From NCBI RefSeq assembly GCF_053078305.1, contig NZ_CP166879.1: a DNA stretch of 64,000 nucleotides. One strand, 5' to 3'. Shown piece by piece: positions 12,567 to 46,919 of this stretch (positions are counted from its first letter, which is position 1; each line of letters starts with the position of its first letter). The notes under the pieces were generated by a model. That model saw nothing but the letters and a program-made list of their open reading frames with translations, had not been told where the DNA came from and made no database searches. A program made the translations under genes and the position numbers.

Positions 12567-12617
12567 ACTTATCAATTTTTTCTGTAGGATCGCGGAACTA
12601 GTTTACGAGGGGTGGTG

Positions 12618-13010
12618 ATGATCTTTGTAAAACGCCTTCAGCAGGTGTTGCAGGAATTGAATATAAACCAGTCAGAGCTGGGAAGACGTCTTGGTGTAAA
12701 ACCCCAATCCGTGCAAGGTTGGTTGAAAGGCGTGATGCCAAGAATGGATAAACTGGAAAAATTAGCAGAGCTCTCACAACATCCCGTCCATTGGTTCTTT
12801 ATGGAAGAAGAAACTCTCGGCGATAAAATGGCTGTATCCAGTAATGACAACCAACCGCAACTTACAGAACAACAACGAAAAATCATATCGCTTTTAGATG
12901 AGTTACCTCAAAGCGACGCAGAGCAGATCATTCGTGATATGGAGCAAAAACGCGATTTCTATAAACGGAAACTTGAAGAGTTACTGCGGCAGAAAAACAA
13001 AACTGCCTGA
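12618..13010 (+). CDS. cI-like repressor (RacR-like, HTH only, no peptidase domain)
   Basis: 130-aa product from ATG 12618 (track ORF begins at GTG 12612); XRE HTH NQSELGRRLGVKPQSVQGW; RBS GAGGGG upstream. Confidence 0.6.
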   Translation: MIFVKRLQQVLQELNINQSELGRRLGVKPQSVQGWLKGVMPRMDKLEKLAELSQHPVHWFFMEEETLGDKMAVSSNDNQPQLTEQQRKIISLLDELPQSDAEQIIRDMEQKRDFYKRKLEELLRQKNKTA

Positions 13011-13056: not shown

Positions 13057-13416
13057 TTATAATCCAACCAGGCTTTCCAGGGGGATACCAAATTGATTAT
13101 GAAGACGGCGAATCATTGGTAACGTAAGGCTTCTGGTACCATTCAACACCTCATAAACCCGATTTTTTTTCCCAATTGCGGGTTCCAAATCTTTCACAGT
13201 CAGCCCCTGCTGTTCCATGCGAAATCTTATAGCTTCAATTGGGGATGGTGGCTCAATGGGATAATGTTTTTTTTCATATTCCTCTATTAGCAAACACATC
13301 ACCTCAAAAAAATCCCCCTCAGGCGTGTCAATTTCGGGCTCATTGTCGAACATGGGTTCAACAGCACGCAACGCGGCTTCATAATCTTGCTCTGTACGAA
13401 TAGGTTTGATGTTCAT
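13057..13416 (-). CDS. higA: HigA-family antitoxin (C-terminal HTH)
   Basis: 119-aa ORF; C-terminal HTH LTLPMIRRLHNQFGIPLESLV resembles K-12 HigA; directly follows the toxin gene (toxin-first order typical of hig loci). Confidence 0.8.
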   Translation of the reverse strand: MNIKPIRTEQDYEAALRAVEPMFDNEPEIDTPEGDFFEVMCLLIEEYEKKHYPIEPPSPIEAIRFRMEQQGLTVKDLEPAIGKKNRVYEVLNGTRSLTLPMIRRLHNQFGIPLESLVGL

Positions 13417-13418
13417 GC

Positions 13419-13721
13419 TTACTCCAGTTCGATGGTATCAGCATCAATAGCATCGTATTCCTTGTGGTTTCCGATGAATTTAACAAATACCCATCCTCGC
13501 TGATACGCAATTGCAACAATTAAACGGTAATGATTACCTTTTATGTTGAATACCACGCGCCGGTTTTTCAATATACTGGCCGTTCGGTATTGTGCCTTAA
13601 TGTCTGCTGGGCTTTTCCAGTCAGCTTTTGCCGCCTCATCCACCCATGCCCTTAGCGGTTGTTCTGCATCAGGATTCTCCGCCCAAAAATCCCTGAGTGT
13701 TTTAACTGAGATAATCTTCAT
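13419..13721 (-). CDS. higB: HigB-family toxin (RelE/ParE superfamily mRNA interferase)
   Basis: 100 aa from ATG 13721 (track ORF extends to TTG 13766); C-terminal FIGNHKEYD motif as in K-12 HigB; 2-nt gap to higA. Confidence 0.75.
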   Translation of the reverse strand: MKIISVKTLRDFWAENPDAEQPLRAWVDEAAKADWKSPADIKAQYRTASILKNRRVVFNIKGNHYRLIVAIAYQRGWVFVKFIGNHKEYDAIDADTIELE

Positions 13722-13764
13722 AACTGTATAGTAGTCCCATTTTGGGACTGATGCAACAGCTCGC

Positions 13765-13819
13765 AATTACAAATTTAATAATAAACATGTTGACCAGTTA
13801 AATTTTAATTTGTAAATTG
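13765..13819. promoter_or_regulatory. Putative oL operator region, overlapping the presumed higBA promoter
   Basis: AATTACAAATTTAA ... TTAATTTGTAAATT inverted arms, same core as the oR motif. Confidence 0.35.
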
Positions 13820-13995
13820 TATCCATAAACCCACCCCGCCCCACAGAACGCAGGGCAATACTTCGAGTTACCCGGCAGTGGTCAGGGGTTAAGTAGCCAG
13901 CCTGAGGCGTATGAACATGACGGCGGGGATTACGTTTAACTATGCAGCAGGTTTTTTGTTCCGCTACCCCGGCGTTAAGGGGAAATGAGGTCAAC

Positions 13996-14148
13996 ATGGA
14001 TACGCTCAATCTTGGCAACAACGAATCTCTGGTATGCGGTGTGTTCCCTAACCAGGACGGCACGTTTACCGCGATGACGTATACCAAAAGTAAAAAGTTT
14101 AAAACCGAAGCTGGCGCGCGTCGCTGGTTAGCCAGAAACACTAACTGA
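13996..14148 (+). CDS. YdaF-like small protein (DUF1391)
   Basis: 50-aa product MDTLNLGNNESLVCGVFPNQDGTFTAMTYTKSKKFKTE... closely matches Rac YdaF; RBS GAGG 6 nt upstream. Confidence 0.6.
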   Translation: MDTLNLGNNESLVCGVFPNQDGTFTAMTYTKSKKFKTEAGARRWLARNTN

Positions 14149-14960
14149 TTAGCACCAGTAAAAACAGGTTGCCACTGGTTAATTTACCCTGAAAAGTCAG
14201 GGCACAACAGAAAGCACACGGCGAAGGCGTCTTTTCCTTAGAAGGCTTGTCGTTAGATTTCTTCGACCGTGTGCTTCCGGTTGTGGCAATCCGCGAAATG
14301 GCGCGGCGGTAAATATGGCTGGGGGTTTTTATTTCTTTTCCCCTCATTGAGGACACCGGGTTGTCAGGTTGACCATATGCCTGAGTGACAACCCCGCCAC
14401 AACATCTCCATGTTTCAATGGCAGTGGTACCTTTGGCGGCATCAGTTTATTAGCTTTCTGATGTCCGCCCTTTTTAAAGTGAATTTTGTGATGCGGTGAA
14501 TGCGGCTAAGCGCACGCGGAACAGTTAAAACCGTAAAGTGGTCTTTTACGGGGCGTAACGGGCATACTTCTGTATTCCGGCGTTAATTGTTAACTGGTTA
14601 ACGTCACCTGGAGGCACCAGGCACTGCATCGACAAAGTTCACTTCGGTGATGAAAGGTAAGAGAAAATGTTGAATGTAGCTATTGAAAACCAGAACGGGT
14701 GGAATTATAGTGCACCTGCACCTCATAAAGCGGGTGCCGGGATTGCTACCCCGATGTTCATCATGGCGCATAACCGCGCTCAGGCGTTTTTTTTATGCGT
14801 AATGCACAGCCACATTCAGATTATGGTGGGGCGTGCAGGGCAGCCGCAAGGCTGGCCGGGTTCCATGATGACCGGTTGTAGCAACCCTGTGCGTCTCACC
14901 ACCCATGAGATTGCTACCTCCGGTGGTGAGTTAATGAAATTCATCATGGAGGCTGCCATC

Positions 14961-15518
14961 ATGGCTACTATCCCTGCCCTTTCTCACCCTGAAATTACTA
15001 TCGCCAATGGGCGTGCTGTTACATCCTCTTTAGCTGTTGCCGAGTATTTCCGGAAACCACACAAAGATGTACTGGCAAAAATTTCACGTCTAGACTGTTC
15101 AGCAGAATTCACTGAGCGAAATTTTTCGCCCAGTGAATATACCGACTCAACCGGGCGCAAACTCCCTATGTACCAAATCACCAAAAACGGCTTCGTTTTC
15201 CTGGTGATGGGCTTCACCGGCAAAAAAGCCGCTGCATTTAAAGAAGCCTACATCGCTGAGTTCGATCGCATGGAGAAAGAACTGCGCCAGAATAACGCCC
15301 CGTCTCCCGACAAAATGATTCACGGGGACGGACGTACCCTGGTTATCCGTCTCGACGAACACGGCAATATCAAATTCACTGAAACCGTTCCTGATGGTGC
15401 AATGGTCTGCACCCTGGATACCTTCCAGTTTTATCTGGAGAAACAAGGCTGGACTCTTGTAAACCGGAGCGCAATTAAAAATATGACTGTGGAGCAATTA
15501 CTAAAAATTCATTGTTGA
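14961..15518 (+). CDS. Rha-family phage regulatory protein
   Basis: Rha N-terminal signature ITIANGRAVTSSLAVAEYFRKPHKDVL; GGAGG RBS before ATG 14961; track ORF begins at 14667 but the 5' extension looks non-coding. Confidence 0.65.
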   Translation: MATIPALSHPEITIANGRAVTSSLAVAEYFRKPHKDVLAKISRLDCSAEFTERNFSPSEYTDSTGRKLPMYQITKNGFVFLVMGFTGKKAAAFKEAYIAEFDRMEKELRQNNAPSPDKMIHGDGRTLVIRLDEHGNIKFTETVPDGAMVCTLDTFQFYLEKQGWTLVNRSAIKNMTVEQLLKIHC

Positions 15519-15528
15519 GGACGCGATA

Positions 15529-15717
15529 ATGGAAACGTTATTACCAAACGTTAATACGTCTGAAGGGTGTTTTGATATTGGTATTCTGCTCAGTAACCGG
15601 GAGTTTACTGAAGATGCCATTAAGATGAGAAAATATGAGCCTTATCTTCTCAATGATAATTCCATACTCTCCAGAATTGCCCTTCTTAAACTTGGTATTT
15701 TCGGAGGGCAGCAGTGA
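15529..15717 (+). CDS. Hypothetical small protein (62 aa, cytosolic)
   Basis: RBS GAGGA upstream; start abuts Rha stop; stop overlaps next start (GTGA). Confidence 0.35.
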   Translation: METLLPNVNTSEGCFDIGILLSNREFTEDAIKMRKYEPYLLNDNSILSRIALLKLGIFGGQQ

Positions 15718-45798: not shown

Positions 45799-46809
45799 TT
45801 AGATATGGGTAACGATTTCTTTAATCAGCGGCGGACCTTTAAAAATAAAACCAGAATAAATTTGCACCAGTGAGGCACCCGCAGCAATCTTTTCACGCGC
45901 AGCGATAACCGAGTCGATGCCGCCAACACCGATGATCGGTAAGCGACCGTTTAATTCCAGTGACAAGCGGCGAATAATTTCGGTGCTTTTTAACTGAAGC
46001 GGACGACCACTTAAGCCACCGGTTTGATCGCAATTTTTCATTCCCTGAACCAGAGAACGATCGAGTGTGGTATTGGTGGCAATCACGCCATCAATATTAT
46101 GGCGAACTAAACTATCGGCAACCTGGATCAATTCTTCTTCAGAAAGATCCGGCGCGATCTTCACTGCGATCGGCACATATTTATGGTGCATCGCTTGCAA
46201 ATCATTTTGTTTATTTTTAATCGCAGTTAAGAGATCATCCAGCGCTTCACCATATTGCAGTGTGCGTAATCCTGGGGTATTTGGCGATGAAATATTGATG
46301 GCGATATATCCCGCATAGGCATAGATTTTTTCCATACAAATCAGATAGTCATCTTTGCCCTGCTCTACTGGCGTATCTTTATTTTTGCCGATGTTAATAC
46401 CCAGGACGCCGTCATAATGGGCTTTTTTTACGTTCTCTACGAGGTTATCAACGCCAAGATTATTAAAGCCCATACGGTTGATCAAACCTTCGGCATCTAC
46501 CAGACGAAAGAGACGCGGCTTGTCATTACCTGGCTGTGGACGTGGCGTGACGGTACCGATCTCGATCGATCCAAATCCCATCGCGCCTAACGCGTCAATG
46601 CACTCCCCGTCTTTATCAAGACCGGCTGCCAGACCAAGCGGATTTTTAAACGTCAGGCCCATGCAGTTAACAGGTTTCGCAGGCACTTTCTGCCGCACCA
46701 GTGCTTCAAACGGTGTTCCGGTAATGCGGCGTAATTGCTGAAAAGTAAACTCATGAGCGCGCTCTGGATCGAGCTGGAAAAGGGCTTTACGAACGAAGGG
46801 GTAGTACAT
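45799..46809 (-). CDS. pyrD: Dihydroorotate dehydrogenase (quinone)
   Basis: 336-aa product [23 protein letters not shown]... Confidence 0.97.
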
Positions 46810-46919
46810 GAACTCTCCTGGATTCCCGGTGTGCAAACCGGGGGCGTATTATGTGCGAGTTCGGACCAAAAGGGAATTGACCTGCGGCAAAAAAAACGCA
46901 AACGTTTTCCGAACCTGTT

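Follow-up and report, generated by a model that had tools for sequence, protein, structure and literature searches.

Results

Genes and RNA structure between ydfA and dicB

The window (the whole 64-kb stretch of DNA analysed here) contains a dicBF-type early-left operon of an E. coli prophage, whose first gene is a ydfA-like DUF1391 gene (13996-14148, on the plus strand like all features below unless stated otherwise; Pfam DUF1391, E = 1.5e-29; DUF1391 protein in RefSeq), with similarity to K-12 ydfA beginning at 13958. Downstream lie a gene for a 185-aa Rha-family (antirepressor-type) regulatory protein (14961-15518; Pfam Phage_pRha, E = 1.2e-30) and the gene for the cell-division inhibitor DicB (15529-15717; Pfam DicB, E = 5.6e-36). 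As in the Qin dicBF operon of K-12 (ydfABC-dicF-dicB-ydfD), the flanks hold ydfA, dicB, DUF1482 (ydfD) and exonuclease genes, and the setting is a DicA/DicC-type immunity region. Unlike K-12 Qin, however, the window lacks ydfB and ydfC, has a higBA pair between the repressor gene and the left promoter, and carries an 850-bp isrK-c4-rha cassette inserted in the dicB leader, the K-12 form of which resumes after the cassette at 15503-15531. The prophage has toxin-antitoxin loci hok/sok (6841-7015) and higBA (13057-13766). Annotations of close relatives list no N gene in the left operon, in line with the preliminary description of this DNA, which had seen no N-like gene there.

That description had singled out the 812 nt from 14149 to 14960 as an unusual 800-bp gap, free of credible ORFs and rich in stem-loops. 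The premise that such a gap is unusual is weak, as ydfC and dicB are separated by 567 bp of non-coding DNA in the homologous dicBF operon of K-12. The absence of credible ORFs holds insofar as those inside the region have no Pfam match and no full-length conservation in all 9 homologous loci. Even so, the region does contain a 71-aa ORF on the minus strand (14141-14356), one of 39 aa and others below that size (none of the small ORFs within 14187-14656 being retained at full length in all 9 homologous loci), and a RefSeq/PGAP CDS for the Rha-family protein (14667-15518) would cut the gap to 518 bp. The wealth of stem-loops is real: upon RNA folding, the full 812 nt reach -317 kcal/mol versus -267 ± 7 kcal/mol in shuffled sequences (z = -7.1). 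An Rfam scan, a check proposed in the earlier description, matched C4 (77.9 bits), isrK (58.1 bits), DicF (36.4 bits) and an STnc100-like element (29 bits); C4 and isrK score above and the DicF allele below the gathering threshold, which bears out the idea of an RNA-rich region with sRNA and antisense-RNA genes. The minus strand of the region gave no noteworthy Rfam match, and a terminator-like site on that strand (14551-14531) lies in a segment absent from K-12-type loci. Judged by sequence, two known modules are joined here, a dicF precursor region (~14170-14660) and an isrK-C4-Rha cassette (~14650-15502).

A dicF precursor region with a divergent DicF allele

Positions 14170-14660 correspond to the ydfC-dicF-dicB spacer of K-12 (mean column identity of 81% in the alignment), with dicF and both long helices in matching places. 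The leader of the dicF precursor contains a small hairpin (CCCTGA-AAAG-TCAGGG, 14187-14202; -9 kcal/mol, z = -3.2) that had been picked out as boxB-like and is indeed present; of its stem, the inner 4 bp do not vary among 7 loci, and the outer 2 bp are not conserved. Next to it lies a long imperfect hairpin (14203-14285). Its arms, initially recognised at 14212-14226 and 14261-14276 around an internal hairpin, extend to 19 nt each (14203-14221 and 14267-14285, 89% complementary), and the structure (-39.9 kcal/mol, z = -4.65 for a 95-nt fold) is kept in 7 loci with 2 compensatory pairs. The remainder of the ~190-nt DicF precursor (14286-14419), of high identity to the K-12 Qin spacer, holds hairpins at 14293-14308 and 14358-14394 (the latter with a 9-bp perfect inverted repeat). 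Downstream of DicF, a structured STnc100-like spacer domain (14477-14644; -72.4 kcal/mol, z = -4.3) is closed by a helix of roughly 28 bp (14477-14500 with 14620-14644) that is kept in 9 loci with wobble-compatible changes only. In both long helices, positions are mostly invariant or change by wobble, with few true compensatory pairs across the 7-9 loci, because the homologues are close.

By analogy with K-12, the long hairpin (14203-14285) probably serves as an RNase III processing stem of the dicF precursor. The 190-nt DicF species of K-12 is RNase III-dependent (PMC10448788) and its 5' end maps to ~14274, in the 3' arm of the long hairpin, while the 72-nt K-12 form has an RNase III 3' end (PMC5069750) that maps to ~14489, in the closing helix of the spacer domain. 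These sites are placed only by transfer of the published K-12 fragment lengths (190 nt and 72 nt), which we used instead of the published RNase III coordinate '813/814' (PMC10448788) since the latter is not mappable to the window. We rejected a possible pairing of 14204-14215 with the DicF loop (14453-14464), since its 12 complementary nucleotides are at chance level (~0.6 expected by a rough estimate) and absent in K-12.

The RNA at 14420-14476 is a divergent ("type-2") DicF allele, composed of a 5' tail, an 11-bp hairpin (-17.6 kcal/mol) and a terminator U-tract (UUUUU). It sits where dicF does in K-12, and its position between ydf genes and dicB, its homologous flanks and its terminator hairpin with U-tract recur in K-12 and 8 other loci. 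The match to Rfam DicF (RF00039; 36.4 bits, E = 7e-6) is under the gathering threshold of 48 bits, and scores elsewhere are 61-77 bits in relatives and 34-45 bits in type-2 alleles. Compared to K-12, the DicF loop and 5' tail are replaced, segment ACUCCGUGACUGCUCUG giving way to AUUAGCUUUCUGAUGU; related alleles occur in SE11 and strain 1303, and the window allele itself is rare (3 records at at least 99% identity). The allele no longer has the segment by which K-12 DicF base-pairs with the ftsZ ribosome-binding site. That the type-2 allele is a retargeted sRNA with a different regulon is conceivable but improbable. Whole-molecule RNAduplex predictions of DicF against the K-12 ftsZ initiation region were non-discriminating, as the validated K-12 DicF itself reached only z = -1.1.

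Inside the spacer domain, the stem-loop previously reported near 14530-14550 is present at 14531-14551 as a variable hairpin, but it is weak (z = -1.5). Likewise, the supposed palindrome GTTAACTGGTTAAC at 14587-14600 exists, but 2 nt away (14589-14602) and as two GTTAAC hexamers instead of a true palindrome. The GTTAAC repeats belong to an invariant double hairpin (14577-14620) in which they are followed, at a distance of 1 nt between the hairpins, by CCUGG-AGGCA-CCAGG. Many E. coli prophages have the helix-closed domain in their dicB leaders, and the prophage sRNAs STnc100/PasD contain a diverged version of it: the spacer gives a partial match to Rfam STnc100 (RF02076; 29-36 bits, below the gathering threshold of 47 bits), and its segment 14491-14629 combines the closing helix with hairpins that include CCNGG-AGGCA-CCNGG. 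By contrast to STnc100/PasD, the window spacer is without a terminator of its own and forms part of an mRNA leader and not a free-standing sRNA gene. Two full STnc100 copies are found elsewhere in the window.

An isrK-C4 cassette precedes the Rha-family gene

Between the spacer domain and the Rha start, a predicted sigma-70 promoter (14683-14711) with TTGAAA and TATAGT boxes spaced by 17 bp matches the consensus at 10/12 positions, and a promoter-like site is present at the equivalent position in those homologous loci that were inspected by eye. The start site expected from this promoter (~14718) coincides with the 5' end of the match to the Rfam isrK model (RF01394), which covers model positions 1-77/77 with 58.1 bits versus a threshold of 50 bits. 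The IsrK sRNA (14718-14794) contains two 10-nt sites, a1 (14741-14750) and b1 (14757-14766), and ends in an intrinsic terminator (14773-14794; hairpin followed by U8); its own promoter upstream and a Rha-family gene downstream complete the in silico architecture of an isrK locus.

The IsrK terminator is followed by a C4-type antisense RNA (14819-14906). It matches the Rfam C4 model (RF01695) with 77.9 bits versus a threshold of 45 bits over model positions 1-87/87 with all pairs canonical, and folds at z = -3.5. Across 18 homologues, compensatory changes were found in 15/27 pairs, and none is broken by a non-canonical pair. The target of C4 lies in the translation-initiation region of rha (14909-14963), which comprises a2 (14909-14918), b2 (14940-14949), GGAGG (14948-14952) and ATG 14961, such that b2 overlaps the Shine-Dalgarno sequence 8 nt ahead of the ATG. 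The a1 and a2 sites (14741/14909) and the b1 and b2 sites (14757/14940) are exact 10-nt repeats, and these targets are complementary to the b' loop (14862-14871, 10/10) and the a' segment (14878-14887, 9/10) of C4, with 14862-14871 pairing at 10/10 with 14941-14950.

These features are shared by other phages. The isrK and C4 pair is also present in Stx phages, ST64B, mEp460, cdtI, phiV10, P1-like RCS47 and P4 as well as in a Yersinia and a Vibrio phage, and both RNAs are annotated explicitly in GenBank LC710661. Among 17 phage loci, the a/b sequences vary but change jointly in IsrK, C4 and the target; cognate C4/target duplexes average -32 kcal/mol versus -21.5 kcal/mol for non-cognate ones and are the best in 13/17 loci. 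The ATG is located 47-57 nt past C4 in 17/17 loci. Twelve loci, that of the window among them, are of the GAGGCTGCC type, with b2 directly next to or overlapping a GAGG-type Shine-Dalgarno sequence that precedes the ATG by 8 nt; four more distant loci have weak AGG/GGGA-type sites only. The conserved context GAGGCTGCCATyATGGCTAC is identical to that of the icd start in P1-like RCS47, and Rha homologues in other phages begin with MAT(I/V)P.

Coding signature begins at position 14961

The preliminary description had placed the Rha start at 14961 and had considered an N-terminal extension of the protein from 14667. However, a codon-position signature is seen from 14961 only: variable columns are distributed over the three codon positions at 49/50/43 upstream of 14961 versus 41/34/78 downstream, and synonymous to non-synonymous codon differences stand at 166:993 upstream, like in off-frames, versus 743:825 downstream. 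In addition, in-frame stops between IsrK and the ATG occur in 8/19 loci. Since these tests indicate that 14667-14960 is not protein-coding, both the end of the gap at 14960 and the Rha start at 14961 are correct.

Could 14667-14960 nevertheless encode the N-terminal "Ash" domain of a 283-aa Rha/Ash protein, with the RNA-family matches being incidental or additional? The ORF is open from 14667, PGAP gives Rha CDSs of 283-285 aa in all close relatives, and Pfam Phage_ASH (PF10554) matches residues 14-109 of the 283-aa ORF with 66.9 bits (cut-off 26; E = 2.5e-18). The frame is also open in ST64B, mEp460, cdtI and others, the length from isrK to the ATG is a multiple of 3 in 9/12 loci, and Rha/Ash is handled in the literature as a domain pair, with Ash having no known function (PMC8951638). 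Against this stand the missing excess of third-position and synonymous changes in the frame, and a near-consensus promoter and an intrinsic terminator within the supposed CDS. In-frame stops interrupt the stretch from C4 to the ATG in the P1-like, Gifsy-1, Yersinia, P2-like, phiV10 and Vibrio loci and IsrK itself in P13374/F004, and the exact triple repetition of the a/b sequences with their complementarity has no protein rationale. Moreover, the Ash profile also matches an obsolete 'cI protein' CDS of phage P4 exactly over the CI/C4 RNA, and P4 immunity is carried by this RNA. We thus consider an Ash protein domain very unlikely; the codon-position statistics, the internal promoter and the P4 precedent indicate that the "Ash" stretch is a translated RNA sequence and not a protein domain. 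A second possibility is that translation starts inside C4, at ATG 14823, on unprocessed read-through mRNA, giving a 46-residue extension of Rha or a coupling ORF equivalent to orf45 of Gifsy-1, an ORF that extends across the C4 homologue as far as the start of anrP. IsrK-dependent translation of anrP is reduced when orf45 has its start codon mutated or receives an early stop (PMC4825925). ATG 14823 is conserved in 18 C4 sequences, P13374 is annotated from the equivalent ATG, and the frame continues into Rha in the window, so that an N-terminally extended isoform is possible. Yet this conservation needs no coding explanation because the ATG is within the conserved C4 outer stem, the segment has no codon-position signature, and its frame relation to the downstream gene varies (out of frame in Gifsy-1, interrupted by in-frame stops downstream of C4 and ahead of the ATG in six other lineages). 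As an initiation site, it is the ATG after b2, with its Shine-Dalgarno sequence, that is universally conserved. Initiation at 14823 strikes us as unlikely, though not negligible.

Other functions considered for the hairpins and RNAs

The preliminary description had also raised nut- or put-like antitermination elements, and the hairpins might act in cis as lambda-type nut or HK022-type put signals for read-through of the DicF and IsrK terminators. Genes lie beyond two intrinsic terminators despite the lack of an annotated N gene, K-12 gives both terminated and read-through transcripts (PMC10448788), and 14577-14620 offers an invariant pair of adjacent hairpins. However, no boxA (CGCTCTTTA-like) was matched within 1 mismatch in 13389-15023, and hence none near the 14187 hairpin. 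Lambda boxB has a 5-bp stem, a purine-rich pentaloop and a cognate N gene, whereas the 14187 hairpin has a 6-bp stem of which only the inner 4 bp are conserved and a 4-nt loop (AAAG). Best local scores of HK022 putL and putR against 13700-15100 (31.5 and 37) are no better than those of shuffled controls (30-31 ± 3.6), putL and putR having been located by their mutual similarity and scoring 59 against each other. The double hairpin measures ~43 nt versus ~70 nt for put with its two long stems and lies downstream of the DicF terminator, and RNA processing accounts for the homologous K-12 region, all of which makes antitermination signals of either type highly improbable. It is also improbable that the double hairpin (GGCGUUAAUU...GGUUAACGUC, A, CCUGG-AGGCA-CCAGG) is an uncharacterised cis-acting RNA element; if it were, it might bind RNA polymerase or ribosomes and so enable gene expression past internal terminators in N-less dicBF-type operons, a role beyond that of an RNase III substrate.

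A further suggestion, an antisense antitoxin, would make the region half of a type I toxin-antitoxin pair. While C4 is an antisense RNA and the prophage has the hok/sok and higBA loci mentioned above, no small hydrophobic toxin ORF lies inside or adjoining the region, and the only sequences complementary to C4 in the 64-kb window are the two adjoining sites a1/b1 and a2/b2, the latter on the ribosome-binding site of rha, an antirepressor-type gene; this reading is almost certainly wrong. Better arguments exist for 14149-14660 being a decaying relic, with DicF and the flanking hairpins non-functional and only the IsrK-C4 cassette of consequence: the DicF score is sub-threshold (36.4 versus 61-77 bits in relatives), the allele is rare, ydfB and ydfC are deleted, and the allele lacks ACUCCG, the K-12 segment for base-pairing with the ftsZ ribosome-binding site (PMC5069750). 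Conversely, the DicF hairpin and U-tract are intact and stronger than those of K-12, related type-2 alleles with stem-preserving differences occur in ~128 genomes, and the processing helices and a 66-nt block are invariant over 9 loci while adjoining segments vary. Decay of this part of the region is a reading that we doubt.

Discussion

Most probably, the 0.8-kb "gap" in this dicBF-type early-left operon (Qin-like and N-less) is made up of known modules that exert control at the RNA level. With three sRNA genes from known families (the DicF variant, IsrK and C4) and processing hairpins, 14149-14960 is an ordinary, already understood kind of phage control region that involves no new principle.

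The segment at ~14650-15502 is a portable cassette of the phage P1 immI/Gifsy-1 isrK type, inserted in the dicB leader. The P1/P7 immI system (P51b promoter, a1 b1, c4, a2 b2, icd, ant), the type system of Rfam C4, shares with it the C4 fold, the placement of a1/b1 upstream and a2/b2 downstream of C4, a b2 site on the ribosome-binding site and a promoter of its own, and P1-like RCS47 has the initiation sequence GGAGGCTGCCATyATGGCTAC at its icd start. In contrast to immI, there is no separate icd ORF here, the regulated ORF being directly that of the 185-aa Rha-family protein, whose resemblance to Icd is confined to the first 12 Rha residues; moreover, the cassette does not stand alone but lies within a lambdoid dicBF early-left operon. 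Similarly, the isrK-orf45/STnc1160-anrP locus of Salmonella Gifsy-1 (Hershko-Shalev et al. 2016, PMC4825925) features a promoter, IsrK with its terminator, a C4-family RNA, a2/b2 over the Shine-Dalgarno sequence, an ATG 54 nt after C4 and an antirepressor-type gene. However, the Gifsy-1 locus is downstream of a Q gene whereas the window cassette lies between dicF and dicB, and the two have different a/b specificity sequences. AnrP and the window Rha are not close homologues (22% identity over 75 aa, E = 0.11), and orf45 ends at the anrP start while its window equivalent is in frame with Rha. The satellite phage P4 (seqA - CI RNA - seqC) likewise has isrK-family and C4-family Rfam matches and an 'Ash' conceptual translation over the RNA, but with a larger spacing from isrK to C4 than in the window.

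On the basis of these likenesses, a scheme for the expression of the operon can be proposed. This scheme borrows from the homologous systems where the RNA is processed, in which direction regulation acts, that dicB is subject to polarity and that Rha acts as an antirepressor. Transcripts from the repressor-controlled leftward promoter would run via ydfA into the highly structured leader, where RNase III may cut the long hairpin (14203-14285) and the closing helix (14477-14500/14620-14644), as K-12 homology suggests; RNase E trimming and the intrinsic terminator would then release a short DicF-type sRNA (14420-14476), again by K-12 homology. A second, near-consensus promoter would fire at ~14718, most of its transcripts stopping at the IsrK terminator to give IsrK with a1/b1, and read-through past this terminator would yield C4. 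In P1, C4 is excised by RNase P; for the window, both this processing and the Rho polarity of P1/P7 are assumed by analogy. The a'/b' segments of C4 would pair with a2/b2 and thereby mask the Shine-Dalgarno sequence ahead of ATG 14961, leaving the Rha-family antirepressor-type gene untranslated and, by polarity, probably damping dicB. IsrK may titrate C4 or remodel the long transcript, because its a1/b1 sites are identical to the a2/b2 targets of C4, which agrees with the activating effect of IsrK in Gifsy-1.

In Gifsy-1, PisrK has been demonstrated experimentally, a read-through mRNA and a stable processed RNA (STnc1160) arise downstream of IsrK, and translation of the antirepressor is IsrK-dependent; Hfq binding and trans-activation by IsrK are known for Gifsy-1 only (PMC4825925). 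The Gifsy-1 mechanism differs from the occlusion model of P1 in that it has 'orf45' translated through C4, draws on alternative structures and gives IsrK an activating role, and the CI RNA of P4 mainly causes premature transcription termination of the replication operon (PMC4825925).

The value of these findings is mainly in annotation. In the 5 RefSeq loci examined (L001-L005), RefSeq lists none of these RNAs and begins the Rha-family CDS ~98 codons too early, such that it spans a promoter, a terminator and two RNA genes, and the Pfam 'Ash' domain on many phage Rha proteins seems to be the IsrK-C4 cassette read as protein. For the prophage itself, the cassette would subject both the antirepressor-type gene and that of the toxic division inhibitor DicB to a pair of additional RNA checkpoints (the IsrK terminator and occlusion by C4), which may bear on the silencing of cryptic prophage toxins and on prophage cross-induction in pathogenic E. 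coli.

Results

The window contains a Qin/dicBF-type lambdoid prophage, as judged from the ORF list, the RefSeq annotation of relatives and Pfam matches. The gene for an HTH (DicA-type) repressor (12612-13010, plus strand) faces a Cro/DicC-like gene, and a higB/higA-type toxin-antitoxin pair (13057-13766, minus strand), present neither in K-12 Qin nor in the RefSeq relatives L002-L005, separates the repressor gene from the early-left promoter region. On the plus strand, a ydfA-like DUF1391 gene (13996-14148) immediately precedes the region studied (14149-14960), which is followed by a Rha-family gene (ATG at 14961, stop at 15518), dicB (15529-15717), a DUF1482 gene and then an exonuclease gene. 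The rightward side of the prophage holds two tandem STnc100 sRNA copies, three tRNA genes and a hok/sok-type Sok RNA, all on the minus strand (1-203, 483-689, 1814-2062 and 6841-7015), and a full-length PyrD leader match occurs at 46804-46877 (minus strand). That match and the near-identical genomes in RefSeq show the host to be E. coli. Some part of the query occurs in 4657 of 5426 complete E. coli genomes, and the full arrangement, at a coverage of at least 80%, in 278.

The preliminary description of this region as free of credible ORFs and rich in stem-loops is confirmed: all listed stem-loop features are present, the entire 812 nt fold with z = -7.1, and mechanical ORF listing returned only short ORFs apart from a long one at 14667-15518. 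The hairpin at 14187-14202 (-9 kcal/mol, z = -3.2) is followed by the long inverted repeat, whose arms reach 19 nt (14203-14221 and 14267-14285; 95-nt fold, -39.9 kcal/mol, z = -4.65), while the stem-loop at 14531-14551 folds weakly (z = -1.5). The sequence reported as a palindrome exists, but lies at 14589-14602 and consists of two GTTAAC hexamers. As to function, the suggestion of sRNA or antisense RNA content was borne out by Rfam matches to IsrK and C4, both above threshold, whereas antitermination elements and an antisense antitoxin were not. A nut site was rejected on the absence of boxA, the wrong loop size and the poorly conserved stem; alignment to HK022 putL/putR scored no better than shuffled controls, leaving a put element unsupported; and no toxin ORF was found, nor any further target of C4 in the window.

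IsrK (14718-14794, plus strand, 58.1 bits) and the C4 antisense RNA (14819-14906, plus strand, 77.9 bits) are both matched at full length. Copies of the a element GATTGCTACC start at 14741 (a1) and 14909 (a2), and those of the b element TTCATCATGG at 14757 (b1) and 14940 (b2). C4 is complementary to the a copies through 14878-14887 and to the b copies through 14862-14871, and b2 overlaps a GGAGG located 8 nt upstream of ATG 14961; the classical P1 immI layout can be read straight from the sequence. The predicted transcription start of a near-consensus promoter (TTGAAA-17-TATAGT, 14683-14711) falls at the IsrK 5' end. The isrK and C4 pair also occurs in Stx phages, ST64B, mEp460, cdtI, phiV10, a P2-like phage, the P1-like RCS47, P4, Gifsy-1, a Yersinia phage and a Vibrio phage. 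The a and b sequences vary over 17 loci, yet IsrK, C4 and target vary in step: cognate C4/target duplexes average -32 kcal/mol versus -21.5 for non-cognate ones, the cognate duplex ranks first in 13 of the 17, and the C4 fold shows compensatory substitutions at 15 of its 27 pairs. Because the ORF under the cassette differs by phage (Rha-type, Icd, Bro-N or small ORFs), the cassette is a portable regulator.

The cassette of this prophage lies within the dicB leader. At 15503-15531 the K-12 dicB leader sequence AAAATTCATTGTTGAGGACGCGATAATG is found again, spanning the Rha stop codon, which thus comes from dicB leader sequence. As diverged dicB-leader copies (14645-14666 and 15503-15531; ACAAAGTTCACTTCGGTGATGAAAGG and AAAATTCATTGTTGAGGACGCG) bound isrK-c4-rha, the arrangement suggests that the cassette was inserted through recombination within the leader. 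Perfect complementarity links the 3' strand of the C4 outer stem, CUCACCACC (14895-14903), to GGUGGUGAG (14922-14930), which closely precedes the Rha initiation region. In the unprocessed transcript these two segments could pair in cis as an alternative, recalling the pair of conformers known from Gifsy-1.

The long ORF raises the question of whether 14667-14960 encodes an N-terminal part of Rha. The RefSeq CDS for the Rha family takes in this stretch, a Pfam 'Ash' domain matches there, and the isrK-to-ATG length is divisible by three in 9 of 12 loci. However, in eight loci where the frame is open, variable columns are spread 49/50/43 over the codon positions and the ratio of synonymous to non-synonymous changes (166:993) is no better than in the two other frames; the 300 nt downstream from ATG 14961 give 41/34/78 and 743:825, respectively. 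In eight other loci the stretch is broken by in-frame stops, the promoter and the IsrK terminator fall inside the supposed CDS, and the ATG after b2 is universal and preceded in most loci by a GAGG-type Shine-Dalgarno sequence. The Ash profile, moreover, also matches an obsolete 'cI protein' CDS of P4, exactly over the C4-family CI RNA. The stretch is without coding signature, and its translation as part of Rha is highly improbable. Translation of a shorter ORF that begins in the C4 5' stem (ATG 14823) is unlikely as well, albeit less so: it is in frame with Rha in the window, and experiments in Gifsy-1 indicate that the equivalent orf45 contributes to antirepressor translation (PMC4825925). 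Pfam PF10554 'Phage_ASH' (window, 14706-14993; phage P4 locus L027, 8330-8521, minus strand) looks like a family obtained by conceptually translating the IsrK-C4-a2b2 RNA cassette. Since the Ash stretch lacks a codon-position signature in lambdoid loci and its P4 match lies over an RNA, RefSeq 'Rha family' CDSs (283-285 aa) seem to begin about 98 codons too early.

Upstream of the cassette, about 14170-14660 aligns as a homolog of the 567-bp non-coding ydfC-dicB spacer of K-12 MG1655, in which dicF sits at the matching place; ydfB and ydfC of K-12 are absent here. In K-12, RNase E excises the 53-nt DicF, whose 3' end is set by its own terminator, from a polycistronic transcript; a 190-nt form depends on RNase III for its 5' end (PMC10448788), and the 3' end of a 72-nt form is made by RNase III (PMC5069750). 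Carrying these fragment lengths through the alignment places the 5' end of the 190-nt form near 14274, within the 3' arm of the long hairpin (14203-14285), and the 3' end of the 72-nt form at about 14489, within a helix of ~28 bp (14477-14500 with 14620-14644) that closes a 196-nt domain (-72 kcal/mol, z = -4.3). Both long helices are kept in 7-9 homologous loci, with two compensatory pairs in the long hairpin and exclusively wobble-compatible changes in the ~28-bp helix. Given that the RNase III ends map into these conserved helices, the preferred interpretation of the long inverted repeat is a putative RNase III processing stem. The 14531 hairpin belongs to a part of the domain that is hypervariable and rich in indels, and the GTTAAC repeats form a hairpin within a 66-nt block (14575-14640) that is identical across nine otherwise divergent dicB leaders. 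This block folds into two neighbouring hairpins separated by 1 nt, the second of which (CCUGG-AGGCA-CCAGG) recurs in STnc100 sRNAs with a compensatory change; the domain as a whole is a weak relative of Rfam STnc100 (29-36 bits, below threshold).

The DicF-type allele itself (14420-14476, plus strand) scores 36.4 bits, short of the gathering threshold of 48, compared to 61-77 for K-12-type copies. The hairpin of its terminator is preserved and exceeds the K-12 one in length. Other sequence has taken the place of the K-12 loop and 5' tail, and with them of the segment through which K-12 DicF pairs with the ftsZ ribosome-binding site. About 128 of 5426 complete E. coli genomes (e.g. SE11 and strain 1303) carry related 'type-2' alleles. 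The class is marked by a perfect hairpin of greater length and by a different loop (also L022, 1494-1544, and L023, 1527-1576, two fetched loci), and standard annotation misses it because its scores (34-45 bits) stay under the Rfam gathering score.

Discussion

By analogy with P1, Gifsy-1 and K-12, the majority of transcripts from the isrK promoter would end as IsrK, and read-through would give C4. C4 would then occlude the Rha ribosome-binding site and may also lower dicB expression through polarity, while IsrK, which bears the same a1/b1 sites, might counteract C4 or remodel the long transcript and in this way activate Rha. RNase III and RNase E would free the DicF-type RNA from operon transcripts. 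Direct support from this locus comprises family membership, complementarity with co-variation, synteny and homology, and the missing coding signature. All parts of the region fall in already described families, with little that is new, and the chief by-products of the analysis are annotation corrections.
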